Positions 7,588-51,608 of a stretch of 64,000 nucleotides of DNA are shown here, one piece after another. The DNA is from Paraspadella gotoi. Its lineage: Eukaryota > Animalia > Chaetognatha. Below the pieces are notes generated by a model. It had not been told where the DNA came from and did not search any database. It was given only the letters and a program-made list of their open reading frames with translations. The stretch is taken from contig CM119263.1 in assembly GCA_051294375.1 (NCBI GenBank), positions 22,842,833-22,906,832 on the forward strand. The letters run 5' to 3'. The number at the start of each line of letters is the position of its first letter. The first letter of the stretch is position 1. Made by a program: the position numbers and the translations under genes.

Positions 7588-8602
7588 TTTTATGAAATTG
7601 CGTTACAACAATATAAAAATTATCCATTCATTTAATAAATAAGCTATCTTGCCCCTGACTTTGGACAGGCTTTGGTGGTTTAAGGCCTCCATCACTCTTA
7701 CAAGATAATGACATAGCAGGTCCCTGCAAGTTTTCAATCAAGACTCTTTCACAGTCTCGTTTATTCACTCCCAGAGTACCTGGCTTCCCTATCAATGAAG
7801 TGGAAAATATTTCAAAGAATGTTTCAATTGTATGAAAAGACCACTCCCTTAAGTATTAGATCGGGGAATACTTATTGTACTCCGCACTAGCATCAAAATA
7901 CAAGGAGCTGAATTTTATGAAATTGGTACAACCAATATAAAAATTATCCATTCATTTAATAAATAAGCTATCTTGCCCCTGACTTTGGACAGGCTTTGGT
8001 GGTTTAAGGCCTCCATCACTCTTACAAGATAATGACATAGCAGGTCCCTGCAAGTTTTCAATCAAGACTCTTTCACAGTCTCGTTTATTCACTCCCAGAG
8101 TACCTGGCTTCCCTATCAATGAAGTGGAAAATATTTCAAAGAATGTTTCAATTGTATGAAAAGACCACTCCCTTAAGTATTAGATCGGGGAATACTTATT
8201 GTACTCCGCACTAGCATCAAAATACAAGGAGCTGAATTTTATGAAATTGGTACAACCAATATAAAAATTATCCATTCATTTAATAAATAAGCTATCTTGC
8301 CCCTGACTTTGGACAGGCTTTGGTGGTTTAAGGCCTCCATCACTCTTACAAGATAATGACATAGCAGGTCCCTGCAAGTTTTCAATCAAGACTCTTTCAC
8401 AGTCTCGTTTATTCACTCCCAGAGTACCTGGCTTCCCTATCAATGAAGTGGAAAATATTTCAAAGATGTTTCAATTGTATGAAAAGACCACTCCCTTAAG
8501 TATTAGATCGGGGAATACTTATTGTACTCCGCACTAGCATCAAAATACAAGGAGCTGAATTTTTATGAAATTGGTACAACCAATATAAAAATTATCCATT
8601 CA
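7588..8602 (-). repeat. Tandem array of three near-identical 324-bp units plus a partial unit, each full unit carrying a twister-like ribozyme (non-LTR retrozyme-like)
   Basis: ATGAAATTGG occurs at 7917, 8241 and 8565 (period 324). A dispersed monomer lies in the opposite orientation at 51299-51608. Confidence 0.92.
7645..7707 (-). ncRNA. Type-P5 twister ribozyme candidate, array unit 1 (identical copies at 7969-8031 and 8293-8355)
   Basis: The minus strand reads UAUCUUGU-AA-GAGU-GA-UGG-AGGCCU-U^AA-ACC-AC-CAAAG-CCUG-U-CCA-AA-GU-CAGG-G-GCAAGAUA. P5, P2 and P4 form, and both pseudoknots pair (CCA/UGG and AC/GU). Predicted cut at 7682/7681. Confidence 0.75.
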
Positions 8603-10730
8603 TGTTATTATGTTTTTTTTTTTATTTTTAGAATCTCCATTTTTTTATATATGCTGTTTTTTAAAGCCTTATCTCGTTTTCTTACTATTCCTGGATTATT
8701 TCATCAAAAATTAACGCGTTATGAAGGCGTTGTTTTTCTTATTTGCTCTTTTTTCTTCTCTTAGGTTTTTTTCTCACGTTTCCTTTATATCTTTCCCCCT
8801 GTTTTGACGCTAGTTTCCCCCCAAAAAAAATATCCGGTTGAGGACTGAGCAGATCATAGATCTCATGGGTGCATCGAATTCTTGAAAGCGATTTCTTTTT
8901 TGAGCCCCTTTAAAGCGAAAACCACTTTCGTGCGCCCTCGCGAAAGCGATTTGTGTTGTGAGTGCGACGACTTCCCTTTTTCAACCGCGAGGATAATTTT
9001 CTTCCGATGCTAATTAAGGGAACGTGAAGGGAAAAGCAGGGAAGGAAAAGGAGAAAAAGAAAAGGAATACAAAAAGGAAAAGGAAAGAAAGAGCAATGGG
9101 TTCCGATTACCTTCCCGGTTCGTCGTCGAGTTACCCCAATTTCGGGTTATAAAGTTAATCCGCGTTAATCAGGCGAAAGGATCGAGGAGATTAACTTCTT
9201 TTTCTCTATTATTTTTCGATTAATGTTTTTTTCGATGCTGCGAATTTTTTCGATATTACTTTTCGATATCCGAGTTTTCATCATGGAAGGTCGTTGTTTC
9301 TACCGCATCTACGGTTGATGACTTTTCGAGAACCGTCGAGAAGATGGCTTAGCAATAAAAGTCAACGTTTCAAGCTCTCAAACACTCTTGAGAAATACAA
9401 GGCTTTGTTTTCAATTTTACCGAGCATCTGGAGAGAACACGGGCCGTATACAACACGCTTTTCTCTGCAAAGTGTCACGTGATTATGTATCTTTCATTTG
9501 TTTGGTTATTATTTGGGTCTATCTATATTCTCTAACTCCCCGCTCTCCTTCCATACCCCAGTTTCGGAATTTCCTTACCTTCCCTACCCCGCCTCTTTCC
9601 TCTAGTCAACGAATCACTCTCTTCAAGCTTCAGCCCGAAAAAAAAGACGAGACCTTACCTTCTCCCCGAAGGTCGCCGCGACTGCTGAGGTAAATTGGCG
9701 TTGGCGAGAAAGTTGGGGGTGAGGCTTCGGGGTGAGGGGCTGCAGTCGAACTCGAGGGAATCCTCGTCATCGTCTTCTTGGCCCGAATCGCTAGAGGGGG
9801 GGGGTGAGACAAGAGGGAGAAGAGGAAATCGAATGAGGAATTGAGGACGGAAGGGGAGGACCGTCGGAGGAGGAGATGGGGAGAAGAGATGGTACGTGGA
9901 GATGGGAGATTTGAAGGTGGGTTCGGGTGGGGAGAAGAGATGGTGTTTGCAGATCGGAAGGTTTGAAGGTGGGTGCAGATGTAGAGACGAGATGGTATGT
10001 GCAGATGGGGAGGTTTGAAGGTGAGGGCAGATGGGGCGGAGAGGAAGGGCGCCGAAGAAAGAAGAACCTTTTTAACAAAGCGATCTTGACCCGGAAAAAT
10101 AAACTGCAAGACCTTTGAACAACAAAAACAACTTAAACTTAACTAAAAAGTTTACAAGTCGGTGATCTCGGCGTCAGGAATAGATTTTAAAATCTTACCA
10201 TTGTCTAACGGCGTCATCACGAATTAACTTTAGCAAGTTTTATTGGTTCTTTCAGCCGGTGACAGAATACTTCTTTTCTTCTGTTTCGTATACTTTTCTT
10301 TTCTTTTTTCTATTTTCTTCCCTTGTTGTGGGTAACAAGGTTAACAAGGGGGTTATTATTATAACCACTAGTTAATAAAGATGACAAAACGTCATAACAT
10401 GAACGTCGTGCCCAACACAAATTATAACCATTGAATAAATTACTTGATTATGAAAATTACATTGACGAACAATATCTTATTAGGCTTATTATTCCACTCT
10501 TAGTTTTTCTCTTCTCTTCTTGTCTTCTACTCTCCTTTTCAGAGACACAATGAATTATACTTTTCTTCCTCACTCTCTCTTTTCCGGACGTGTGTTCATC
10601 ATTATAACCCTAGTAATGTCTCAGATTGAAAGGAGAAATTACCGAAGTGATTTAACGCCTATTATAGAATTCTCATCACCGATAAAAGCGATTTGATTTT
10701 GATCACATATCAGTTTTATCACATATGTAC

Positions 10731-12999: not shown

Positions 13000-13877
13000 A
13001 AAACTTTTTAATCTATATTCTTTAAATATATATGTATTGCTTTCTTAAAAAAAATTTTACTTATCATATATGTGTAAAGAGAGATCGTACGCGTGCAATA
13101 CTTGGCGTCGTTATGTAAATACTGATCTTTTGAAGAGACAGTAATTATTGATTTGTGTTAGTGACAGAACCGTTCATATAAGCAGTCCCTGAGCTTCGAT
13201 CAGGCTGTAACACCATGTTACAGGCGGGTTAAGCGCCCTGTCGGTAACGTGACCTGTGACCCTCAAAAGATGACGGATAGAGAGCTAGGTGGTACATGAT
13301 TGACTAGTCTTATTTTTTGAAGTTACCTGAAATAATTGCAGATTGCCAAAGTGGTATTAGTAAATCAAACAAGGTTTAAAATATTGCGTCTTACTCCCTT
13401 GAGATCTAAAAATGGAATGTACGAAATCTCGGCCTCCCTCTCGTCTCTCTTCCTTTGTTTATTCTACTTAAACAAAATGTTTACAAAATAGGCGCTGAGT
13501 TCTGGGAATCTATGAAATATTAAACTTTGGAACTGAAGAAATTTAGAGAGACAAAATTTGAACGAAAGTTAATTACTAAATTGTAGCTAATTAAAATATT
13601 ACTAACATCTCCCCCTAAACAAATTGTGTTAAATGGCAAATAGATGAGTAAGCTAAACAGTGAGTACAAATGATCACATGTAAGGCAGTAGTACAAATAA
13701 TCTTAATAGTTATAACAGTATTACAATTGATCAATATTGGGGAAAAGTAATTAGGACAAAAATAAATCTGCGCTGCATCTAATATGAAAAAACGTAACAA
13801 AAACAAAATTGTTTTGAAAATAAGTCGAAACTGCCGGCCAAACAGTAGGAACTAAAATGTAATATAATTAATTATTA

Positions 13878-16155
13878 CACTGTTTTTTTTAACCATGCAG
13901 TCGAAAATTTTCACAATCCTGTACAGTTTCTAGTATAATTTTAAGTGCTTAAACGATTAACAAGGTGTCGTCAATCAGATTTTGCATTAGACCTGCGCAC
14001 AATTTACCGGAAGTTGGCGTGGACTACAATATGGAATTTTCTTTTTACTACAAATTAAAAGTTAGGCAGTTGTTATTTACTTATCCTGCAATTAGTATAA
14101 TTATTTATAAGTAGTACTTAGACAAAAAATGTTCAATAAAGGCTTTTCATCAATAGTGGGCGTGTCCCAAACCGGAAATAGTGCTCGAATATCAATTAAA
14201 TATGTATTATTAAATGTTTTTGATCTATTCTGACTGCTAATGGTTTTTTCTGTTATATGAAGCTTTATCACAAAAGATTAACATCCATATCATAAAAAAA
14301 TTCAATCATATTTATCAATTATTACATCTTAAAAAGATTCGTTTTTTAATAGCCAAAGGACTTTAAACTTTAACTATAATATTCAAAATTTCATTTCAAT
14401 TTCATTCAATTAATGAGACTTTTCTAATTTAACAATTCCTGGTTTTAATTTTTAATACCTTTTACTAATTTAATTTTTTTTATCGGTAATTTTTTTACTG
14501 GCATACCATATTTTTGCTCAAAAACTATAGCCGGAAGTTAGACCCTTTTTTCATAAAGTTTTATGTAAATCTTTAGAGGGAATACCTTATTTTTAAGTTT
14601 TTCCAGGTGAAGGAGAAGAGAAACAATATCCATGCATCAAAAAGTTAATCAGATTTATAATTTTCTTTCTTTTCATTAAAAAAACCTTTAATCCAGCAAT
14701 AAAAAATATTATTTATACATTATGTGAAATCTTTCTTTTGTCGCGTTTTTGAATTAGAAAGAGTTTGAAGTAGTTCAAGCAATGATTTTTCTTTAAACAG
14801 TGAAAATTTTTTTTCAATATCTATCTCTCTCTCTCTCTGGCCTAAACCTAACCTGTCTTCACCTCGACCTCTATCCTTTTCCAAATCTTTGTTGAAAATT
14901 TTTCTCTCTCTCTTACTCTCTTTCTCTCTTCCTTACTCTCACCTAATTTCACTCTCTCTTCCTTTCTCTCCTCTCTCTCCCAAATATTTTTTGTGAAGTA
15001 AACTGTATACAATTCATAAATGTGGATGAAGACTTGAATTAAAAGTTGAAACATGTTCACTGTTTAAAATCTGATACGAAAATAAGAATCAGTTTTAATA
15101 AGCTGTATAAACTTTATTAATTAGTTTTTTTTGATTTAGTTTCATTTAACTTTAGTCCCAAGGGTTTTAGAAGTAAGACGACTCTTATTCAAACCTTGAG
15201 TATATCATATCAAGTTTCATTATAATAAATAATACAGCAATATAAAATTATTAAATATTTTTTCGTTTTGACAAGGAATAACAAATATTTAGTATTAAGC
15301 AATTCATAGTAGAATTTACAAGTTCATTTTATTACTTTCATGCTAATATTTTTATCTTTTGAACAAATCATTTTTCAAGGCAGTTCTTTTGTATTTTGCT
15401 TCTCTCTCTCTCTCTCAACCTGACTTTTTCTGGAACAATTTACTTTTACTCTGGACTGCCTTTAAAAATGATTAGTTCATAAGAATTAAAATGTTGGCAA
15501 AAAAGTAAGAAAATCATACTTATAAATCCTACCACGAATTGCTTAATACTAAATATTTTTTTATTCCTTGTCAAAAAAAGTTTATATGCTTAATACTAAA
15601 TCATTATCTCCTGTGCATATGATGTCTCTTCAACAACGAATTAATTCTGAATTTTAAGTTATTAGAGAACGAATCTTTTGTAACTGATATTTATTTTGTC
15701 TATTTAGAGCTATGATAGTTTTTTATGATATATATGATAATTCTTTGTGATACAACTATCATATGATAATAAAAAACCATTATATTTATAGTAGATCAAA
15801 AACTATTAATATTGCGTATTTTATCAGTTTTTGAGCATCATTTCCGGTTTTGGACACGCCCACTATGGGTAAGAACCTTTTTTTAAAAAAAATTTAAAGT
15901 AAAACCTATTAAATATTGAGAGTAAACTCAAATTTAGGCAATTATTATTTTTATAAAACTATTTTTTTATCTTGCAATTAAAGAAAAGAGAAAAATTCCA
16001 TTTTGTAGTCAACGTCAACTTCCGGTCAATTGTGCGTAGGTCTAACGCAAAATCTGATTGACGACACCTTGTTAATCGTTTTAAGTACTTAAAATTATAC
16101 TAGAAACTGTACAGGATTGTAAAAATTTTCGACTGCATGGTTAAAAAAAACAGTG
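13878..16155. mobile_element. Non-autonomous DNA transposon with ~350-bp imperfect TIRs (CACTG termini, TA flanks; EnSpm- or Tc1-like)
   Basis: TA|CACTGTTTTTTTTTAACCATGCAGTCG ... CGACTGCATGGTTAAAAAAAACAGTG|TA. A partial related copy lies at ~35982-36350. Confidence 0.82.
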
Positions 16156-17252
16156 TATTAATTATATATATATTGGGAACCAGTATGTAAACAAACATCA
16201 AACAATTCACGTAAATATGGCAGTCATTCATAGTCCCGAAATCGTTCATTCATTCATCAATTTTCAATATTTTTTTCACAAATCAACGGAAAATTTTTTT
16301 TCTTGATCTAATTTGTCCATTACATCAATCAAGGAAAACTCATTCTGCTCTTCCTTTTCCTAACCCCAAAATGGTAAGTGTAACGGATCAGTCTATCATC
16401 CTCTTAAAAGGTGCGCAATTATAATTACGTCACCGATTTTCAATAAGAATTAATTGTTTCATAATTTTAATTTAAATTCAAAACAGTGCCGGCAACCTCA
16501 GTTTTCTGAGAGTGCAGAGAGCCGCAATGTCCTTTTAACAGTGCAAAAGGGTAAGAGACTCAGAACCTTAAGGTAAGATTATTTCGCCAGTGCGGGTTTT
16601 TTAGTTAAGTAAAAATATAAAGTATTATTTTTGTAAAATATTTCGTAAACACTAATGCAGAAATTTGTTTTCGTTTGGTCTGCGGCGCCATTTTACACTC
16701 TGCTCGCCAAACTAGGCTGGAAATATGGGAAATCATGTTCCATTCCCGTCACCAATCAAGGCGTTTTCGGCATTTGTCAGCCCGACCCTTCTACTCTTTA
16801 CTTGGTCATTCTTGTTGCATTTTCAATTGTCTGTCTGGCATTGCTCATTGGCATCGTCCGCCTTCAATGTCGTCATTGTGTCGGTAAGAGAAAGGTGCAA
16901 ATTAATTCAGTGCCGAAACATGCAAAAAGAAATCATAATTTCGAAATGAAAAGTGCAAAAGAATTCGTGCAACAGATATTAAAAAGGGTGCAAAAATTTC
17001 AGGATCGTCCAGTTCAAAGTATCATTTGTCCGTTCCCTGTACTCTGCCGGTCGCGCCTCAGCGCAAATCGAAAAACCAAATCGCGGACATTGAAGATCAC
17101 TCCGAAGTTTAGATAAACCCATTCGAATGTTATTTCAATGTAAATTTACACCGTCTTATTTAGGTTCTATAAATATTCGAATTAATTATTCATTGATCTA
17201 AATAATTAATATTCATATTTCTAATTTGTCAAACCATTATCAGGTTGGTTGA

Positions 17253-18007
17253 TGTTACGAGGCTAGGGATCTCGCCCCTGCTCAGCAACTTAAGGATAGG
17301 AAGGAAGAGAGAGGTACCTGAGCTAGTCTTCTCGCCCCTGCTCAGCAACCTAAGGATAGGAAGGAGAAGAGAGGTACCTGAGCTAGTCTGCTCGCCCCTG
17401 CTCACCTACCTGAGGTTAGGAAGGAAGCGATAGGTACCTGAGCAAGTTTTCTCGTCACTCCTCTGCTATGTCAGCTATCTCAGCATAGATCATCTAATGA
17501 GAAGTTGGCGAGAAAACAGAAGAACCAATGACAAGCTTGCACACCTCAGCAAGAGAGAGAGGAGGAAAGAGAGATCTCAGATACCACAGCCCTCAGCCAA
17601 TAGGAGAGAGAGGAGAGCTGAGGGTCCTCAAGGGGTACTCAGGTTCCTTAGCCTTGCACCAATGAGATGCTCTATTTTATGTAGATGAGGAGGAAGGGTA
17701 GGCTAGGTTTTTCTATAAAAAGGAGTGTAACAAGGCTTCTGGGGGCAGTTCAGCGGCCTCCCAAGAAGAAAGAAGAACAACTGCGCCCAGAAAGACCAGC
17801 GGACCTAAGGACTCAGGATCATAGAGGAACTATGCCCAAATCTCCCTGGATAGGAAATCCTTGGCCTGGCAACGTCCCTCACTGTTGGAAATAAAGGATG
17901 CTAATAAACTACAAATAAAACTCTAATAAAACGTTTTTCCTGATAGGAAAAAGTAGCTACTGGGTAGTTGTAGGATTGATCTTTTTTGCGGCCCGAAATC
18001 CGCAACA
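17253..18007 (+). mobile_element. Solo LTR, 755 bp
   Basis: TGTTACG...CGCAACA termini with a 5-bp TSD GTTGA. It has three 60-bp tandem repeats (~17270-17456), TATAAAA at ~17714 and clustered AATAAA at ~17890-17930. Confidence 0.85.
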
Positions 18008-18597
18008 GTTGACTTTGATCGGCAACCTGACAACATGCATGTTTCATTCTTCAATTCGTTTCATCATATCAAATATTAACGTTATTAACGATTTGAATTA
18101 AATTTAAATATATGAATTTTAATTTTCGCTTTCGATCGATCAACTTAAAGTCAATAATTTCTACGAGACTTTAGCTTTCCCACATTTCCTTACAAATCGG
18201 TCGTTCTCGGAATTGCGGTTCAGTATCGCAGAACAGCAGTCGGTCGACGAGTTCCGCTAAAACGCGCGTTTTCTTGACATTCAGGTGAGTTCGGTCCGCA
18301 TCGTACAAATTATTGTCTAACACTAACCGACCGTATCTTTTCGTGCGGAAACAATTTTGTTTAACCATTTCAAAGGTTGAACGTCAAGAAAATAATCTTT
18401 TACAAGTCGATTGAGACGTGAAAATAAAAATATTTGACGTAATATTTTTATATAATATAAGTCGTGATCTACTTATTTGGCTTTAGGTTAATGTTTTGGT
18501 TTTCGAGTAAGCAATATCCAAAAATTCATCGTTATCTACAATAAATCATGTTCGTATGTCAGAGAGGCTAAAACAAAAACAAAAAAATATACTAAAC

Positions 18598-19319
18598 TAG
18601 GACTAAGCTCTGACGACCAAAGCCCGAGGTTTTTTTAATATATTCTTATACCGGCCAAGGTAGAATGATGGCAATATTGTTAATATTAAGTTTCAAAAAA
18701 ATCCGACTATAAATATAGAAAATATTAACCAAAATCTTCGGAAAATTCACCCCTTCTTTGGAAGATTTTCGCCATAGAAGATTTTTCCCGAATGTGACTC
18801 CCGGTTGAAAACTCTTAGAATTCCGATGTTAGCTGCTCTTTTACTTTTACTTTAAATAAAAATTTCACCAAAATGGACTAATTCACTTTACCATGATCGT
18901 ATCATATCAAAATAACCTAATAAAATGTAAAGAAAAATTTTGAGAGCCCTTCAGATACTTTGCCAAAGGATTCCAAAATTGGACCTCATTTATTGAACAG
19001 GAACATACCTCAGTCACGTTTATATCGTTTTCAAGGAAAAAAATTCCTTTCATTTCTATATAAAATCAGAGATGGAAAATTTTTTTGTCCAGAAGCAATC
19101 TATTTGTTCTGGCTTGTTTGATATCAAGATGTTGATGATTTGACAAGAGAAAAAAAATGCGAGCCCTTCAGATGCAACAGGATCGGAATCAAGTGTTTTT
19201 ACATCGATATTTTACCAGAATTTTTACCAGGAGCGTTTATATTGTTTGGTAGTCAGATTTGAATGAAAATCTCCATTGAAAAAGTCTTCCTCGATCTCTA
19301 AGAACGACGTAGACTCCTA
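18598..19319. mobile_element. Non-autonomous DNA transposon, TAGGA...TCCTA ends, apparent 7-bp TSD
   Basis: ACTAAAC flanks both sides. A near-identical copy is at 20562-21279. Confidence 0.7.
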
Positions 19320-20561
19320 ACTAAACGTTTTAGGAAAAAATTTCGTTTCATTGGGAAAAGAAAAAAAAATCTTATATTACCCCCTTATCAACTCGGACAA
19401 AAACAATCATTCGCGCGTACAGATAACTTCGAGGCTGTCCGTTAAGCGAACAACGCTGGCCACCATGTCGGTAACGTGACCTGTGACCCTCAAAAGATGA
19501 CGGATAGAGAGCTTGGTGGTACATGATTGACTAGTCTTATTTTTTGAAGTTACCTGAAATAATTACAGATTGCCAAAGTTGTATTAGTAAATCAAACAAT
19601 TGTTAAAATATTGCGTCTTACTCCCTTGAGATCTAAAAATGGAATGTACTAAAATCTCGGCCTCCCTCTCGTCTCTCTTCTTTTGTTTATTCTACTTAGA
19701 CAAAATGTTTACAAAATAGGCGCCGAGTTCCTGGGAATCTATGAAATATTAAACTTTGGAACTGAGAAAATTTAGAGAGACAAAATTTGAATGAAAGTTA
19801 ATTACTAAATTGGAGGCTAATTAAAATATTACTAACAGCCCCGTCCTTAACTGCTAGGCGACCACCGGGCTAGAACCCCGGACCTTTGGGTTGGGAGGCG
19901 AATGACTTGCCTCCGGCACCAATGGCCGCTGATGAACGGTTGATAGATTTTAGTCCACCATACATCCCCCCTCCCATAGGGAGAAGTCTGTTTCGTCTCT
20001 TCAGTGAATTGTTGTTGGTGGAAAGTGTATCACCAAGTCGAGGCAAGGTGCCTGATGTGTTGTTGGTGGAAAGTGCATCGCCAGGTTGAGGCATGTCGCC
20101 TGAAAGTGTTGTTGTTGGCTTGTTGCTATTGTGTTCGGAAGTCGGGCTCACCAATGAATAGACAGTAATTATTGATTTGTGTTAGTGACAGAACCGTTCA
20201 ATATAAGCAGTCACTGAGCTTCAGATCAGGCTGTAACACCATGTTACAGGCGGGTTAAGCGCCCCATCCCTCTTAACTGCTAGGCGACCACCAGGCTAGA
20301 ACCCCGGACCTTTGGGTTGGGAGGCGAATGACTTGCCTCCGGCACCAATGGCCGCTGATGAACGGTTGATAGATTTTAGTCCACCATACTTTGTTAGTTC
20401 GTTGCCAACCATTTAGAAAAGCTCAGTACTGTTAAAAAGAATACCAGGGATCGCCCGTTAATGGAAGATATTAAGATATTTTTCTACACTCCCCTGAGGA
20501 TACCTACTACGTAAGAAATAAGAAATGAACTTGAAGAATAATTGTCTGATATTATTATTAT

Positions 20562-21279
20562 TAGGATTAAGCTCTGGCAAACAAAGCCTGAGGTTTTTTT
20601 AATATATTCTTATACTGGCCAAGGTAGAAGGATGGCAATATTGTTAATATTAAGTTTCAAAAAAATCCGACAATAAATATAGAAAATATTAACCAAAATC
20701 TTCGGAAAATTCACCCCTTCTTTGGAAGATTTTCGCCATAGAAGATTTTTCCCGAATCTGACTCCTGGTTGAAAACTCTTAGAATTTCGATCGTTAGCTC
20801 ATTTACTTTTACTTTAAATAAAATTTTAACCAAAATGGACTAATTCACTTTACCATGATCGTATCATATCAAAATAACCTAATAAAATGTAAAAAAAAAT
20901 TTTGAGAGCCCTTCAGACACTTTGCCAAAGGATTCCAAAATTGGACCTCATTTGTTGAACAGGAACATACCTCAGTCACGTTTATATCATTTTCAAGGAA
21001 AAAAATCCCTTTCATTTCTATATAAAATCAGAGATGGAAAATTTTTCCGTCCAGAAGCAGTCTATTTGTTTTGGCTTGTTTGATATCAAGATGATGATGA
21101 TTTAAAGAAAAAAAAAATGCAAGCCCTTCAGATGCAACAGGATCAGAATTAAGTGTTTTTACATCGATATTTTACCAGAATTTTTACCAGGAACGTTTAT
21201 ATTGTTTGGTAGTCAGATTTGAACGAAAATCTCCATTGAAAAAGTCTTCCTCGATCTCTAAGAATGACATAGACTCCTA
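20562..21279. mobile_element. Second copy of the TAGGA...TCCTA element
   Basis: Colinear with 18598-19319 and flanked by TTATTAT on both sides (low complexity). Confidence 0.7.
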
Positions 21280-21360
21280 TTATTATTGTTTTTAAAGGTT
21301 TTTAACATCTGAAGAGACAAAATGATTGTTATGTGTAAGTGACAGAACCGTTCAATATAA

Positions 21361-21434
21361 GCAGTCCCTGGGCTTCGGATCAGGCTGTAACACCGTGTTA
21401 CAGGCGGGTTAAGCACCCCATCCCTCTTAACTGC
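21361..21434 (-). ncRNA. Type-P5 twister candidate in a TRIM LTR (partner copy at 21780-21853; another at 20207-20280)
   Basis: Family consensus: GCAGUU-AA-GAGG-GA-CGG-GGCGCU-U^AA-CCC-GC-CUGUAACA(CGG)UGUUACAG-CCUGA-U-CCG-AA-GC-UCAGG-GACUGC. This copy has UGG and GGUGCU (wobble substitutions). Predicted cut at 21411/21410. Confidence 0.68.
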
Positions 21435-21856
21435 TAGGCGGCTACCGGGCTAGAACCCCGGACCTTTGGGTTGGGAGGCGAATGACTTGCCTCCGGCACC
21501 AATGGCCGCTGATGAACGATTGGTGGATTTTAGTCCACCATACATCCCCCCCTCCCATAGGTAGAAGTTTGTTGCGTCTCTTCAGTGAATTGTTGTCGGT
21601 GGAAAGTTCGTCACCAAGTTTAGGCATGTTGCCTGATGTGTTGTGGGTGGAAAGTGCATCGCCAGGTTGAGGCATGTTGCCTGAAAGTGTTGTTGTTGCT
21701 GTTGTGTTCGGAAGTCGGGCTCACCAATGAAGAGACAGTAATTATTGTTATGTGTTAGTGACAGAACCGTTCAATATAAGCAGTCACTGAGCTTCGGATA
21801 GGGCTGTAACACCGTGTTACAGGCGGGTTAAGCGCCCCGTCCCTCTTAACTGCTAG

Positions 21857-21928
21857 GCGGCCACCGGGCTAAAACCCCGGACCTTTGGGTTGGGAGGCTA
21901 ATGACATGCCTCCGGCACCAATGGCCGC
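21857..21928 (-). promoter_or_regulatory. tRNA-derived segment (putative internal Pol III promoter) in the TRIM LTR; not a functional tRNA
   Basis: 72 nt bounded by acceptor-like GCGGCCA/TGGCCGC. The family consensus has ATTCGCCTCCCAA (Gly-CCC-like loop) and a T-arm/B-box-like CCGGGGTTCTAGCCCGG. The anticodon stem does not pair. Also at 21438-21509 and 39450-39520. Confidence 0.62.
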
Positions 21929-24900
21929 TGATGAACGGTTGGTGGATTTTAGTCCACCATACATCTCTATATCATCATTTTGTTATCAATATGGGCGTTC
22001 TGGAGTGAGGGAATTTTTGAGCTGGGACTTACCGTTTTTTTTTTAAATAAAAATTATTTTGATTTACGATGAAGTTTTATAAAAGTGTGCGATCATAGTA
22101 AGTTAAAAATTTAGATATGGCTTCTCATCTTGAAATAGCTTTGATATTTTCATATTACATTTGGATTTAATTATTTTTTTTTGAATTTCCACTTCATTAA
22201 GATTTACTGCAATATGCAAATGAGATTATAGTACTCATTACAATATTCAAATTAGTATATAAAATGCTTTAATCTAATTTACATATTGTAGTATATATTA
22301 TTGAAGATGAAATTCATAAAATTTTTTTAACAAACATGGGAAATCACAAGACCTTTTTAATGTGAAGCTATATCTTAATTTTAATACAAATAAAAATAAA
22401 GTCTTTTACAACCTATGATTGAAAACAATTGGAAAAATTTCCAATTGTAAACAATTGTAACATATTTTTGCCTTTCTTTTATTTTTTTAAATTATAAATA
22501 TATATTTTTTTCTTTTTCTGAAAAAACGAGTTCAGGCTTTGCAGTGACTGTACAGCGGCTTTCCAGCAGCTGTCTTGCTTTGTCTCTCTCTGTCTGTCTC
22601 TCTCTGTGTTTCTCTCTCTCTCTCTCTCTCTCTCTGTACGATCTCTTTCGGCAGTGATTTTGATTCGGGTATTTTAAACATTGAAATTGAAACTTAAATA
22701 ACTATTAATTCTTTTTTCCCACTGATAAATATGAAACTTTCTTTATTTAAAAAAACGGTTGGCATTAGTTATCTTCTCCTTATAACATAGAACTCACTGG
22801 GTGAATTTCTATGCTTTAAAAATACGGTAAGGCATGATTTCTTTCACGTTAATCATTCCAATTACGGTATCAGCCTTTTTTAAGAAGAAACTAAAAACGA
22901 TTTTTCATGGTAAGAACAACTTTTAAAGATAAAATTGCTCGTAAGATCTTTCTGCGGTTTTTAGATATACTACTGCTTAGGCAAAAAATTGGCACGCTAT
23001 ATTATTAAACTTTTTTTTTGTTTTCCACTTCTTTTCTTATTTTCTTTCTTTCTCATTCTCTCTGTGTGAAGTTTTTTGTTGTTTCACGCCCCCATAATAA
23101 GCATTAAATTTTATTTTATTTAGACATAGTCAGTCACTCTTGTCCTTCAACTGTTCTCTCCCTCAATACTATCCATAACTCATTTCTTTGGTGGACGTTC
23201 TCTCTCTCTCTCTCTCTCTCTTTCTTTATCATAATGTTTGGTAAAATTTCTTATAAAATTAACACTGCGCTGAAGAAGACTCGAAAAAGAATCAAAACAT
23301 GTCCATTTTAAAAATAAAACTCATTGTTTCTAAACAAAAATAATCTTTGTTTTCTCTCTCAATTTTATTTCGAGAAAACTTTGGTAGCGTATGATTTTAT
23401 TCAAAGTTTGGTTGCCGAGCAGATTTAAAAAATCGTACAAACGTTGCATTTAGGAAAAAAACGACTCTTTCCAATATTGTTCAGCTGTTTCTTATAATGT
23501 TGATTAACTTTGTACCACAACACAAATTAGGCCGAACGAAGGATTGGTTAAAAACATCTCCACCCGTTTCTAATGATAAAATAGTACCATTTTGGCAACT
23601 TTTAGCCAAAAAAATTATGTCCATTTTTGTCCATTTTTACTTACGACTTCTGATTTGAATGCCAAGGAAAGTTGAGAAAAATTTTTTACTTTGGAAATCC
23701 GTTCTTTCTTATCTTCTTTACTTACCCCTGGGTAGATTTATTAGTTTAAATCATTTATAGTTTGCCTATGAATTAATTTTAAAGTTAACAAGTCAAAAAG
23801 TTGCAGTTTCAGTCTTTATCATAATTTGTTAAACAAAAATAAATCAAATTAATTGAAAGTAACAGAAAATATAGCCTATTGACTAAGCTTTTCACACCTA
23901 TAAAATTATCAAAAAAACTTTTTTGGTTTAGCCACAAATAATTTTTAAAGGCGTCTTTTAATTTGTGACTTTTTGTGACTTGCATTTATTTTTGATAAAG
24001 ATAATATTTTCAACTCAATCATTAGTTTTAAAAGATGAGGTACATACTGACCTTGATTAATAAAAAAAAACCGCACCCTTTTAAGCCAATGGAAAGCGTC
24101 AGGACTTGTTTTTTCTCAAAATCGACATCTGCCGATTTACTAAATTTGCTAGGCAACCAAAATTGAAATAAAAATCATGCGCTACCGTTCATTTTCTTTC
24201 TTATAATGCTTATTAAAGAATTTCTTTGATTTGGCTCAATGTAAATGTTGTGAGAGGGAAGACGAAAGGGAAAACTATAAAAGGAGAAGGGGAGAGAATG
24301 AAAGAGATGGTGAAAGGCAAAAAAACGAAGGCATATGGGGAAAAATACTAAAACAATTGTAAGGTGAGAAAAGAGGGAAAAATGGAAAGAAAAAGAGGGG
24401 AAAAGAAAAGGGAAGAATGAAGATGAGAAAAAAAGGTAAGGAAAGTGCATGAGTGGCAGAAAAAAATAGGGGCCGAAAAATGGTAAGTGACAGCGTGAAA
24501 AGTAAGGGAGGAAAGAGGAATAGGAAAATATAAAGTAAGAGAAGAAAAGATGTGAAGAAAAATAATCAGGAAAAGCGTATGAAGGAAAAAAAATTATATC
24601 AGATAATGTGGCGTCTTACCTAAAAACTTTTATGCAAGTAAAAGACGTGAAGATTCTTATGAGGAATTCGATCTTTAAAAATTATTTATACCATAAAAAT
24701 TCGAACATACTTCTATCTAAAATTATGCAGTTAATGAGATTAGAAAAACAATCATTGAAGAAATCATGTCTTACCGTATTTTTAACTCTTAGAAATTTAC
24801 AATGGGAAGTTCTAAGTGATAAGAAGGAATTGAGACGACCGTTTTTTTAAATGAAGTAAGCTTCATACTTGCCAATGAGATCAAGAAAGATGGTAATTAT

Positions 24901-28170: not shown

Positions 28171-31100
28171 CCGATGCCAGCAGCCGGAGGCAGTAAACGC
28201 CGCTGCTGGTAGTACAGAACCCTTACTGCATGTGTAACGACAACAACACAATTTTGACATGGCTTGTGACGGTGGTGCAAGCGTCACCTTGATGGCGCCT
28301 TCGCCATCAGAAAAGCTCCGCGGTGGCTCCGCGCCTCAACTTCATGCTGCAAACGGGTCTCCAATCTCTTCCTACGGCACCAAACAAATCACTATCAGAC
28401 TAGGAAGACGCACATACTCACTAACAACCGTACTCGCTGACGTTACGACCCCTATTCTTTGGAGCTGATTTTCTGATGGAGCATCATTTAGCCGCCGACC
28501 ACAAGCTCGGCCTACTCGTTTGATCTTGATGATTTTTTCAACAATCGCAGGCAAATCTTACCTGGACAGGCCTTTCAGAGTCAATACAGTCAATAATGCC
28601 TATTTCAAATTGATTGACGAACGCCAGAACTCACACAACTAGATTTGACCCTTCGAAGACCATGCACGGTGTAGAAACACCACATTCCAACCGAGGGTCC
28701 GCCTGTCCACTCCCAAGCACGCCGACTTGCACCTGACAAACTCAAAGCAGCCAAAGAAGAATTTGCAAAAATGGAGAAGCTGAGGCATTATACGGAAGAG
28801 CAAGAGTGCTTGGGCATCACCACTGCATGTGGTCAAAAAACCTGACGGCTCACTCAGATGTTGCGGTGACTACAGGCGCCTCAACGCAGTCACAAAAGAC
28901 AACCGCTACCCCATCAAAAATTTGATGGATTTCAACGCACATGTCGCAGGCAAAAAATTTTTCAAAAGTAGACCTTTGTAAGGCTACATCAAGTACCTGT
29001 AGCAGAGCAGGATATTTGCAAAACAGCCGTCATAACTCCTTTTGGCTCGTGGAATTCCCGTTCACCCCATTTGGCCTCAAGAATGCAGGTCCTGATTTTC
29101 AAAGGATGATGGACGAAGCCCTCAAAGATTGTACCACACATCTTTGTATATCTAGATGACATCCTGGTCGCCTCAAGCAATGAAGAAGAACACATGCAAG
29201 ATCTCACACTAGTGTTTGACACCCTGCAAGCAAATGGTTTAGTAGTGAACAGGGCAAAATGTGTACTGGGCGTACCATCACTCGACTTTCTCGTTACCAG
29301 GTAGACGCAACAGGCGTCAGGCCATTGGACACAAAGTTGAACACATCAAGCAATTCCCCCAGCCAACATCAGTCAAAGAGGTTCAAAGATACTTGGGCAT
29401 GCTCAACTACTACCGGCGTTTCATTCCACACATCGCCGAAGTCCGTACACCATTATACCAAGCCTTAAAAGGCAACCCCCGAGTCCTTAAATGGACCGAG
29501 GAAATGACTCAAGCCTTCAACAAGTCGAAAGAAGCTCTAGCAAACGCAACTATGCTTGTCCACCCTGTGGACGGGGCACCTTGAGCCCTGACCGTCGATG
29601 CGTCACTGACGGCCATCGGCGGCGTCCTGGAGCAGAAGATTGGTGGTCAATGGCAACCCTTAGGCTTTTTCTCAGCCCCGCTAGCTCAGAACCAGACAAA
29701 ATGGCCACCTTTCAACCGGGAACTCCTTGCCGCACACCGCTCAGTCCGGCACTTCAGGCCATTCCTGGAAGGGCGCTACTTCGTTCTGTTCCCTGACCAG
29801 AACAGCCTAGTTCCCGCCATACGCAAGAAATCTGAGCCACACTCAATGCGTCAAACATATCAATTATCTGCCATCTCCGAATACACAACAGACATTCGAT
29901 ACAATGAGGGCAAGGCAACGTGGTAGTGGACACACTATCAAGAATCATCAGCCCAGCAAGCAGTGGCCCAGAACCTGAAGGATCATCAGGACCTTCAGAA
30001 ATGCCCTCTTTGGTCGCAACGGTCAACGCAGTTGGCCCCAAGGCGTCGATTTTTGCCGCTTTAGCCGGTGACCAGAGTTCCGACGAGGAGATCCAGCGAC
30101 TCCTGGCGGACGCCCACACCAGCCTGCGATTCAAGATAATTCGCCTGAACGACTTTGACATCATCTGTGATGTCAGTTCAGGCAGGGCGCGCCCCTTGGT
30201 TCCCACAACTTGCGCCGTCGAGTTTATGATGCCATCCACAAACCTAGCTCACCCGAGCGTCAGATGCACAAAAAAGCTGGTAACAAAGAGATTTGTTTGG
30301 CCACAAGCCGCGTCAGACGTGGCAAAATGGGCTCAGGCTTGCCTTGACTGCCAGCGCAGCAAGGTACAACGACACACCCAGGCTCCACTACAACCTTTCG
30401 AAGCACCATCGAGGCGTTTCGAACACATTCACATTGACTTGGTGGTCCCTTGCCCACCTCAGGCGGTTACACGTACCTTTTAACCTGTGTAGACCGTTTT
30501 TCTCGCTGGCCTGAAAGCATATCCCCTTCGGGATATCTCCACAGTAACTGTAGCAACAGCCTTCCTTCAGAACTGGATCGCCAGATTCGTGTACCAAGCC
30601 ACGGTCACTTCCGACCGTGGAACACAATTCACTTCTGAATTGTGGCATCACTGAGCCAAGCTATAGGCTACAAGCTCAACACCACCACAGCTTACCACCC
30701 GCAGGCGAACGGGATGGTCGAACGGTTTCACCGTACCATGAAGGATCATTGAAAGCGCGTTGTGATGCGTCCGGCGCAAATTTGGTTCAATCAACTACCC
30801 TGGGTCTTATTAGGACTCAGGTCCGCACCAAAAAGAAGACCTACAAGCATCACCAGCAGAACTTGTATTCGGAGATACAATAGCAGTCCCAGGCGAACTG
30901 GTAATAGGTACACAGCCAAACAAGAGCAAATGCCCCAAAATGAGCTGCAAAAACTTGAGACATGACGTTGCATTGTTGAGACCAGTAGTTCCTAGTTGGC
31001 ACTCAAACCCACCTGTTCATCTTCTCGCAGTCTTGCCTCAGCAAACTGGGTTTTGTGCTCCGCGGCCAACAGGGTCACTCGCTAGCTACGCCCTACTTGG

Positions 31101-31197
31101 GCCTTACAAACTAGTCTCAAGAGATGACAAGACCTTCACAGTGGACATCCCTGGCCGAGGACAAGAGAAGATCTCCATCGACAGGATCAAGCCAGCA
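28171..31197 (+). pseudogene. pol: Pol polyprotein (protease, RT, RNase H, integrase) with many 1-nt frameshifts
   Basis: Protease CDGGASVT. RT motifs CGDYRRLN, PFGLKNAG and YLDD (29149-29160). RNase H LTVDAS and RELLA. Integrase AHP...CLDCQ, HIHIDLV, VDRFSRWPE, SDRGTQF, AYHPQANGMVERFH and GPY. Confidence 0.93.
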
Positions 31198-34688: not shown

Positions 34689-35961
34689 TGAAGAGACAGT
34701 AATTATTGTTATGTTTTAGTGACAGAACCGTTCAATATAAGCATTCCGTGGGCTTCGGATCAGGCTGTTTCACCGTGTTATAGGCGAGTTTAGCGCCCCG
34801 ACCCTTTGCACGGTTCCCTAGACACCCCGAAAAAGAAAATAGAAATAACCCATTTTTGAAACACAAAAAAATGAAAAATATAATGTTTTTACTACATCGT
34901 AGTGAAGTCGAAAAATTCTGATCCAAGCAAGTTTTTTTTAATTGAATTTTAAAGTTTTGTTATAATTTTTCATACAAAATAATGAGAAACTAATCATTTT
35001 TCAGTAAGAATTCTAATATTAAAAGCTTAAAATATTAGCAAAAAATAGACAAATCACAATTTTATTTGTATATATTTGGAGAAAAAAAGTGATCACAAGT
35101 CATGTTTGATTAAAAAATCTTTAAATATGAAATTTAATTTATTATTGGCATATTTTCCTATCAATTAAAACCTTTTATGATAAAATATATTGAAAATTGA
35201 CTCAAATATTAATATTTTTGAATATTTTTTTTACTTTTTAAGCATTTTGTGGAATTGTTTTTGTCAATATCTCAAAAACGAATTATCACGGAGAACTGAG
35301 ATTAGACTCAAAAGAAAGATCATAAAATGAGGATTCTTTTGGATGTATAATATTACTAATTATGCTCTTGCTTGATGTTAAATTATTTAAAAATATATAT
35401 ATAAAATTTAACAATTTTATACATAGCATTTCATAGTAGTTATTGGTTGAAGAAAAATTTAAAATTAGGTTAATTTTGAAGCTAAGCAATTGTATGTTAC
35501 ATTTCTATAGTTTTTTATTAAATAAGAATTGATTAAGTCTTTCATGTAGTAATTACAAAATGGTTACTATTTTTGTAATAAATTGAGTTATTTTCAATAA
35601 TAACTTGAGAATGAATAATCGTAGGCTTATGAGAGTGAGTTCAAATTAAAGCTCTCTTTCAGTAGATAATGATTGATATAAAGAAAGTAAAATTTGACAA
35701 AGAATGACAAAGTCGTTGATTAGTTTCTCATTATTTTGTATGAAAAATTATAACAAAACTTTAAAATTCAATTAAAAAAAAACTTGCTTGGATCAGAATT
35801 TTTCGACTTCACTACGATGTAGTAAAAACATTATATTTTTCATTTTTTTGTGTTTCAAAAATGGGTTATTTCTATTTTCTTTTTCGGGGTGTCTAGGGAA
35901 CCGTGTTTGCTAGGCGACTATCGGGCTAGAATCCCGGACCAATGGATTTTAGTCCACCATA
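34689..35961 (-). mobile_element. TRIM family 1 solo LTR, degenerate and interrupted by a DNA transposon
   Basis: TGAAGAGACAG...GTCCACCATA on the plus strand, with TSD ATAT (34685-34688 / 35962-35965). Confidence 0.82.
34809..35905. mobile_element. Non-autonomous Chapaev-like (CMC) DNA transposon
   Basis: ~185-bp TIRs start CACGGTTCCCTAGACACCCC, with a 4-bp TSD TTTG. A one-armed fragment lies at 46866-47325. Confidence 0.85.
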
Positions 35962-38902: not shown

Positions 38903-39553
38903 TGAAGAGACAGTAATCATTGCTTATGGTTTAATGACAGAACCGTTCAATATAAGGAGTCCTGAGCTTCGGATCAGGCTGCAACACCGTGTTACAGGCG
39001 GGTTAAGCGCCCCGTCCCTCTTAACTGCTAGGCGCCACCAGGCTAGAACCCCGGAACTTTGGGTTGGGAGGCGAATGAATTGCCTCCGGCACCAATGGCG
39101 GCTGATGAACGGTTGGTGGATTTTAGTCCACCATACATCCCCCCCTCCCGTAGGGAGAAGTCTGTTGCGTCTCTTCAGTGAATTGTTGTTGTTGGTGGAA
39201 AGTTCGTCACCAAGTTGAGGCACGTCGCCTGATGTGTTGTTGGCGGAAAGTGCATCGCCAGGTTGAGGCATGTTGCCTGAAAGTGTTGTTGTTGCTGCTG
39301 TGTTCGGAAGTCGGGCTCATCAATGAAGAGACAGTAATTATTGTTATGTGTTAATGACAGAACCGTTCAATATAGCAGTCCCTGAGCTTCGATCAGGCTG
39401 TAACACGTGTTACAGGCGGGTTAAGCGCCCCGTCCCTCTTAACTGCGAGGCGGCCACGGGCTAGAACCCCGGACCTTTGGGTTGGGAGGCGAATGACTTG
39501 CCTCCGGCCACAATGGCCGCTGATGAACGGTTGGTGGATTTTAGTCCACCATA
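38903..39553 (-). mobile_element. TRIM family 1, copy 3, intact, antisense in GPCR intron 1
   Basis: LTRs at 38903-39135 and 39324-39553, TSD GCGG. PPT present, PBS with one substitution. Confidence 0.92.
38956..39028 (-). ncRNA. Type-P5 twister candidate with a consensus core (partner at 39375-39446)
   Basis: GAGG-GA-CGG-GGCGCU-U^AA-CCC-GC...CCUGA-U-CCG-AA-GC-UCAGG is intact. Predicted cut at 39005/39004. Confidence 0.72.
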
Positions 39554-46719: not shown

Positions 46720-47346
46720 TCGTAGTTTTCCAGACCGATAGCCGACTTTTATTTCCCTGCTAAATCACAATTATCTCGCATTGTTTTAATCTAATTTTTA
46801 AACAAAAAATTATTTTACAATAATTTTAAAATAATTTTTACAGTACGCGTAATTCGTTTTATTTACACGGTTCCCTAGACACCCCGAAAAAGAAAATAGA
46901 AATAACCCATTTTTGAAACACAAAAAAATGAAAAATATAATGTTTTTACTACATCGTAGTGAAGTCGAAAAATTCTGATCCAAGCAAGTTTTTTTTTAAT
47001 TGAATTTTAAAGTTTTGTTATAATTTTTCATACAAAATAATGAGAAACTAATCAACGACTTTGTCATTCTTTGTCAAATTTTACTTTCTTTATATCAATC
47101 ATTATCTACTGAAAGAGAGCTTTAATTTGAACTTACTCTCATAAGCCTACGATTATTCGTTCTCAAGTTATTATTGAAAATAACTCAATTTATTACAAAA
47201 ATAGTAACCATTTTGTAATTATTACATGAAAGACTTAATCAATTCTTATTTAATAAAAAACTATAGAAATGTAACATACAATTGCTTAGCTTCAAAATTA
47301 ACCTAATTTTAAATTTTTCTTCAACCACTTTTAATATCACTTTTAA

Positions 47347-51298: not shown

Positions 51299-51608
51299 TA
51301 TTTTGATGCTAGTGCGGAGTACAATAAGTATTCCCCGATCTAATACTTAAGGGAGTGGTCTTTTCATACAATTGAAACATTCTTTGAAATATTTTCCACT
51401 TCATTGATAGGGAAGCCAGGTACTCTGGGAGTGAATAAACGAGACTGTGAGAGAGTCTTGATTGAAAGCTTGCAGGGACCTGCTATGTCATTATCTTGTA
51501 AGAGTGATGGAGGCCTTAAACCACCAAAGCCTGTCCAAAGTCAGGGGCAAGATAGCTTATTTATTAAATGAATGGATAATTTTTATATTGGTTGTACCAA
51601 TTTCATAA
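51299..51608 (+). mobile_element. Dispersed monomer of the 324-bp repeat, with a twister candidate at 51492-51554
   Basis: Near-perfect reverse complement of the 7588-8602 unit. Predicted cut at 51517/51518. Confidence 0.9.

Follow-up and report, generated by a model that had tools for sequence, protein, structure and literature searches.

A 64,000-nucleotide (nt) stretch of the genome of the chaetognath Paraspadella gotoi (GenBank assembly GCA_051294375.1, contig CM119263.1, positions 22,842,833 to 22,906,832; here called the window) carries on its minus strand a miniature long terminal repeat (LTR) retrotransposon, in which each full LTR contains a tRNA-like head of 72 nt and, behind it, a motif resembling the twister self-cleaving ribozyme. 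The reference insertion, copy A, lies at 21310 to 21961 (652 bp) and comprises a 234-bp 5′ LTR (21728 to 21961), a 185-bp interior (21543 to 21727), and a 233-bp 3′ LTR (21310 to 21542). The LTRs were delimited by self-comparison, with loose contig ends at 21961 and 21728 for the 5′ LTR, and align to each other with 219 identities, 14 mismatches, and one gap. Read along the sense strand, the 5′ LTR has a 7-bp hairpin at its 5′ end (21940 to 21959; the hairpin was observed in the 3′ LTR copy), the head (21857 to 21928), and the twister-like motif (21780 to 21853). A primer binding site (PBS) of the tRNA-Trp type follows at 21714 to 21726 and, together with the preceding T, shares 13 of 14 letters with the Trp PBS of Gypsy-32_NVi and Helenus-2_SyJa, a Gypsy-type PBS in keeping with the Gypsy helper proposed in an earlier reading of this DNA (the original prediction). 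The interior is noncoding and C/A-rich, with a short internal duplication and, near its polypurine tract (PPT), a 9-bp stretch complementary to the LTR 3′ end. The 12-nt PPT (21545 to 21556) is separated by TG from the 3′ LTR, whose head and motif are at 21438 to 21509 and 21361 to 21434, with a predicted cut at 21411/21410.

Copies and insertion marks

Self-comparison of the window reveals two full copies (A and B, the latter at 38903 to 39553), an interrupted copy C, and a damaged solo LTR, copy E, all on the minus strand. The 5′ part of copy C lies at 19838 to 20388 and the rest of its 3′ LTR at 13131 to 13238, this LTR being split by a nested 6.6-kb LTR element inside the linker that stands for P1 in the twister-like motif; copy E (34689 to 35961) is interrupted by an inverted-repeat element. 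All four insertions have an exact 4-bp target site duplication (TSD) on both sides: CATC for A (21306 to 21309, plus strand, and 21962 to 21965), GCGG for B, CTTT for C (shared with 20389 to 20392), and ATAT for E. The architecture of the original prediction, with LTRs of ~234 bp, a PBS, an interior of ~185 bp, a PPT, and four distinct 4-bp TSDs, is thereby confirmed. Each insertion starts with TATGG and finishes with TTCA, so that the termini are TA...CA rather than TG...CA. Contigs of three public sequencing runs break at the same LTR ends (242, 169, and 59 contigs at the 3′ end and 104, 87, and 20 at the 5′ end), indicating that these ends are general and that the family has many insertions, although its read-depth figures are not usable as a copy number. 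LTRs within an element are about as divergent as LTRs of different elements (216 to 220 identities over ~234 positions in all 10 LTR pairs), which suggests neutral decay after one older burst, and the window copies are presumably decayed products of it. We note that several one-base deletions in doubled letters (in 39324 to 39553, 38903 to 39135, and 13131 to 13238) may be long-read assembly errors and not mutations; two of these fall in loop L4 of the twister-like motif.

The tRNA-like head

The head corresponds to LTR nt 34 to 105 and has a 7-bp acceptor stem and a T-arm with a 5-bp stem and a 7-nt loop, GGTTC being present in the loop in five of six heads. Segments resembling the A and B boxes of RNA polymerase III (Pol III) promoters, as judged against the general consensus, lie at 21920 to 21909 and 21876 to 21866 in the 5′ LTR of copy A. 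The anticodon arm is disrupted, and at lowest energy the head folds into something other than a cloverleaf. The head is likely a worn Pol III promoter like that described for Helenus, a family of miniature retrotransposons with terminal repeats (TRIMs), a likeness that is not proof. The absence of TTTT runs noted in the original prediction holds for copy B, with none in the 651 nt of its sense strand, and not for copy A, which has two; at the run inside box B of copy A, ~94% of the read depth carries the other letter. The first TTTT in the flank lies 4 to 77 nt downstream of the element.

The twister-like motif

The motif spans LTR nt 109 to 182 in the order P5, P2′, G-A, T1, 6-nt linker, U^AA, P2, GC, an 8-bp P3, P4, L4, P4′, and P5′, where ^ marks the predicted cut (U21830/A21829 in the 5′ LTR of copy A, in which P4 is damaged). 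We annotated it against the Rfam Twister-P5 consensus (RF02684) and the Schistosoma mansoni table, and it shares with RF02684 the P5-permuted order P2′-GA-T1-P1-U^AA-P2-GC-P4/L4. The catalytic G and A, the U^AA site, the L4 loop, and pseudoknots T1 and T2 are all present. So are all four positions that are intolerant in the rice twister (G13, G30, A46, and G48).

Apart from an added P3 and a closing P5, the motif departs from the consensus at four places. T1 is a CCG/CGG swap, shared by 7 of 66 unique phage twisters (the P5-type L049, L080, and L128 are among them), and the equivalent rice double mutant (C27G/G47C) has an activity of 0.86. The pair closing L4 is A-U where twisters normally have an invariant G-C, and the rice swap G23A/C32U scores 0.85. 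In place of a P1 hairpin there is a 6-nt palindromic linker (21831 to 21836), which could pair with its twin in the other LTR; P1 is described as dispensable in twisters. Lastly, the 5′ strand of P2 has three nt and not four in six of the seven LTR stretches of the window, copy E being ambiguous, and a rice twister with a C.A mismatch at P2 position 3 retains an activity of 0.84. We obtained the rice activities by counting columns in the matrix given as text in PMC5113685, with the value for the G23A single mutant as a check. A short P2 does have natural counterparts: L169 (71 to 130, minus strand), from a Vicinamibacterales genome, is an Rfam Twister-P5 match of 58.4 bits (cut-off, 37.6) with P2 short by the same one base, and L167, from a second genome, is a spacer between clustered regularly interspaced short palindromic repeats (repeats at 32 to 67 and 105 to 140) that holds a twister fragment with a 3-base P2 in the same register. 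Judged from its letters and pairing, the motif is twister-derived, but it lacks two consensus features, the four-pair P2 and the G-C pair closing L4. We lean toward the view that undamaged copies self-cleave at the predicted U^A site.

The resemblance is beyond chance. A seven-tier structural descriptor, written after the motif had been noticed, was matched at tier 5 in 37 of 600,000 conditional simulations (~3e-6 per LTR) and at tier 6 in none of 600,000 (below ~9e-8 per LTR). Among the seven LTR stretches of the window, tier 6 of 7 is reached only by the 3′ LTR of copy B, which has the best-kept motif, and the remaining six are damaged in P4 or L4. Where the window copies are broken, most of the read depth has the pairing letters (among 40 of 72 substitution rows). 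The original prediction of a tRNA-like head and then a twister in every LTR is upheld in its order, acceptor stem, and catalytic residues, and must be qualified in that most stretches are damaged, that ARAGORN and Rfam miss the head, and that Rfam misses the motif. Pattern scans for relatives yielded 15 viral matches, rejected as chance by eye and lacking any Rfam match, and one metagenome match, likewise rejected as chance; a 10-letter match to Ajax LTRs was treated as chance since no twister core stands behind it.

Unit RNA and folding of the two LTRs

The predicted cuts lie 419 nt apart in copy A and 418 nt apart in copy B, in line with the 418 to 419 nt of the original prediction. The 6-nt linker forms no hairpin, and its self-duplex is computed at -8.5 kcal/mol with the linker register one base off. 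Domain-swapped cores built from the two LTRs are more stable than two monomers by 1.3 (A) and 8.1 (B) kcal/mol, in an arrangement that is fully nested, and the P5 helix between the 3′ LTR and the 5′ LTR has a probability of 0.99 in both free ensembles. A driving role of two long-range 9-bp helices in the end-to-end pairing found no support, as shuffling them left the swap preference unchanged; two such helices occur in 4 of 150 and 1 of 150 shuffles.

Relationship to Helenus and to ribozyme-bearing elements

By definition the element is a TRIM of the Helenus type (TRIMp3; Kojima 2024, PMC10886601), a group whose Pol III transcription is likewise putative. It is a short noncoding TRIM with two LTRs, a PBS, a PPT, and a tRNA-like LTR stretch with boxes A and B; like animal Helenus families it has a 4-bp TSD and a Gypsy-type PBS, a Trp PBS is found in Helenus-2_SyJa and Helenus-2_SyUm, and some wasp families also begin with TA. 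It differs in carrying its head within the LTR's 5′ half, with the twister-like motif next and no T-run after the head. The closest families, Helenus-2_SyJa and Helenus-2_SyUm from Synergus wasps, have a hammerhead-like motif and not a twister. By eye, their LTR sequences (Helenus-2_SyJa-LTR and Helenus-2_SyUm-LTR; DataS1 of PMC10886601) hold a complete type III hammerhead directly after the tRNA-like part, identical in both, with a GTC triplet, a 7-bp stem I, a CTGATGA core, a 4-bp stem II, GAAAC, and a 12-bp complementarity of loop 1 with loop 2. The hammerhead core motif is found at five places in that file, and among the matches listed the two outside Synergus are fungal and have no hammerhead context by eye. 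No ribozyme is named for Helenus in the main text, where the word hammerhead appears only in a reference title. The Synergus case strengthens the idea of an LTR retrozyme, but these families have several TTTT runs in the interior, a caution against over-reading the parallel. The original prediction had proposed scanning the Helenus entries of Repbase/Dfam for twisters; motif searches of the sequence file of the PMC10886601 supplement gave no match to the twister core or PBS of our element. The pair of Synergus hammerheads came out of reading the animal Helenus sequences by eye.

Plant LTR retrozymes, as described by Cervera et al. 2016 (PMC4918200), carry a type III hammerhead, use a tRNA-Met PBS, and measure 1 to 1.5 kb. 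Our element resembles them in the position of a putative self-cleaving motif in both LTRs, the noncoding interior with PBS and PPT, the 4-bp TSD, and a presumed Gypsy helper; it differs in its twister-like motif, Trp-type PBS, length of 652 bp, lesser pairing (see below), and tRNA-like head. If the motif cuts, the element would work like an LTR retrozyme, although ribozyme type, PBS, and pairing place it outside that class. Schistosoma SINE-like (short interspersed element-like) hammerhead repeats similarly combine a Pol III or tRNA part with a self-cleaving ribozyme (PMC6765202), and the T-variant twisters of Perere-3 are an instance of twisters used by retroelements (PMC8501958); however, these are non-LTR elements without a PBS, PPT, or integrase-type TSDs. 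The available literature places LTR retrozymes mainly in plants and describes animal retrozymes without LTRs, PBS, or PPT, and one review alludes to unpublished work concerning insect elements that carry type III hammerheads. A literature search, with most subscription papers, Repbase, and Dfam outside its reach, found neither a twister in any TRIM or LTR element nor a ribozyme in Helenus, and the combination thus appears undescribed, as the original prediction supposed.

A proposed replication cycle and its rivals

We suggest that the element is an animal LTR-retrozyme-like element, and we offer the cycle as a whole tentatively, with doubt slightly ahead of confidence. Pol III would initiate at the 5′ LTR's head, reading through both LTRs into the flank. 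Both motifs would then self-cleave, probably as a domain-swapped pair, a pairwise cleavage that we propose because the linker replacing P1 is palindromic, forms no hairpin, and pairs with its twin. The double cut would strip both transcript ends and leave a unit of 419 nt lacking terminal redundancy, which would likely close to a circle, its ends held by the P5 pairing between the 3′ and 5′ LTRs. With both cuts made, the RNA would end in no repeat; extension of minus-strand DNA from the PBS would then be possible only across the joined ends, and this join may take the place of the first strand transfer. The later steps would be those of ordinary LTR replication, with PBS priming, PPT priming, a second transfer that rebuilds two LTRs, and integration, reverse transcription being carried out by a tRNA-Trp-primed Gypsy helper.

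A number of observations weigh against this cycle. Rfam gives no match at the gathering threshold in the 64 kb, with only unrelated chance matches at E values up to 10, and our own phage-trained covariance model places the motif 10th of 13 with a best E value of 6.4, although this model (built on 31 of 56 unique phage twister cores, in all of which the search pattern had fixed P4) is too narrow to decide. No element in the window has two intact motifs. P2 normally has four pairs, and a review relays the suggestion that an altered P2 length may disturb the active site; the one-base-short P2 could weaken or kill the motif. The rice deep mutational scan contains no deletions, four viral scans gave no real 3-base-P2 twister against 66 unique 4-base cases, and only 2 of 17 genome matches have a 3-base P2. 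No twister with an L4-closing pair other than G-C was found in the phage scan. A T1 wobble is present at ~24 to 39% of the read depth and in two window LTRs, and such a wobble scores only 0.21 in the rice twister (PMC5113685, our column count). The head is imperfect in both boxes, box A departing from TRGCY, and neither ARAGORN nor Rfam makes a tRNA call on it, while the lack of TTTT in copy B is at chance level, being shared by 1523 of 5000 shuffles. The unit RNA is 53 to 55% paired (z of about -2 to -3), compared with ~70% for plant retrozyme RNA (PMC4918200). The swap preference is kept when the interior is shuffled (mean -1.6 and -7.4 kcal/mol), and its source is thus the duplicated LTR itself and not helices of the interior; the folding models also ignore pseudoknots, cotranscriptional folding, and folding order. 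Finally, the original prediction had pointed to conservation of the ribozyme core relative to the rest of the LTR, and the core is no better kept, differing in 3 of 104 cells versus 42 of 1292 elsewhere (P = 1.0), or 5 of 122 versus 50 of 1391 with copy E included (P = 0.8). Copies of one burst that decay neutrally after insertion are expected to look so, and the comparison has little power; the lack of extra conservation is therefore neither support nor refutation.

The main rival is that the motif is a relic, in that a twister-bearing ancestor gave rise to a master that was already inactive when amplified, and the element dispersed in the usual manner of a Helenus TRIM, having a redundant R region and transcripts that ended in the flank or by some other signal. 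The short P2 with its unpaired partner does resemble a lesion, no P2 insertion appears among the three indel rows of the read tables, the weak T1 wobble is common, the core has no extra conservation, and the other animal Helenus families examined show no obvious ribozyme by eye. A relic is harder to reconcile with the intact P3, P4, P5, T1, and T2 in the majority letters, including two compensatory swaps, with the natural 3-base-P2 twister L169, and with a second ribozyme class at the same place in the Synergus families, and we regard it as unlikely, though seriously to be reckoned with.

Alternatively, the motif could be an attenuated maker of 3′ ends, with slow or regulated cleavage that leaves some transcripts cut in the 3′ LTR only; these would retain ~99 nt of terminal redundancy (from head to cut), undergo normal strand transfer, and form no circle. 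Cleavage would be slowed, as this account supposes, by the P2 and T1 variants, which are suboptimal, the unit RNA is modestly paired, and the head, unlike that of many Helenus LTRs, has no T-run terminator behind it. However, the transcript carries complete motifs in both LTRs, the 5′ one being made first, and swapping would place the two sites in cores that are equivalent; selective 3′ cleavage is quite improbable in our estimation. A chance resemblance, in which neither the stretch behind the head derives from a twister nor the head serves as a promoter, would explain why Rfam, ARAGORN, and our own model find no match, and the descriptor was after all written with the motif in view. Such a coincidence nevertheless seems very remote given the rarity of tier 6 in the simulations and the agreement of element order and residues with both the Rfam P5 consensus and the S. 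mansoni table. The LTR-retrozyme-like cycle remains the reading that we prefer.

Other features of the window

The nested element in copy C (13239 to 19837) is inserted exactly in the P1 linker and has LTRs of ~370 bp with TG...CA termini, a 4-bp TSD, an Ile-type PBS by comparison, and no Pfam-detectable open reading frame (ORF) among those scanned. A decayed Gypsy-type pol at 28193 to 31197 (plus strand) has reverse transcriptase, RNase H, and integrase parts by similarity to P0001 to P0003, and no Trp-type PBS was found next to it. The inverted-repeat element in copy E (34809 to 35905) has 150-nt arms that are 95% complementary and a near-identical relative at 46862 to 47327. Three tandem units of ~325 bp, 98 to 99% identical, are found at 7588 to 8603, with a dispersed inverted copy at 51299 to 51608, and copies A and C are flanked by a 720-bp repeat (18598 to 19319 and 20562 to 21279; 95% identical), for which the reads also indicate a high copy number. 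A Pfam scan covered 156 ORFs (22 of 24 long and 134 of 158 shorter ones); apart from a piece of Gypsy integrase nothing exceeded the cut-off, and no host gene was found. CpG observed/expected in the window is 1.03, with no methylation-type depletion, a value that probably suits an invertebrate more than a plant or vertebrate; together with the PBS type and the TSD length, it was the basis on which the element was called animal.

Significance

It is conceivable, although we are more doubtful here than about the cycle itself, that animals harbor unrecognized LTR retrozymes that are Trp-primed and driven by Pol III and can exchange one ribozyme class for another (twister here and hammerhead in Synergus), and that in P. 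gotoi the LTR twisters act as one domain-swapped double ribozyme, with circularization replacing the first strand transfer. If this is true, LTR retrozymes would extend to animals, the twister would gain a role in LTR retrotransposition, and the element would provide a 650-nt system for studying LTR-element replication in the absence of an R region. Two already catalogued Helenus families carry a hammerhead-like motif, which suggests that more such elements are present in repeat libraries.

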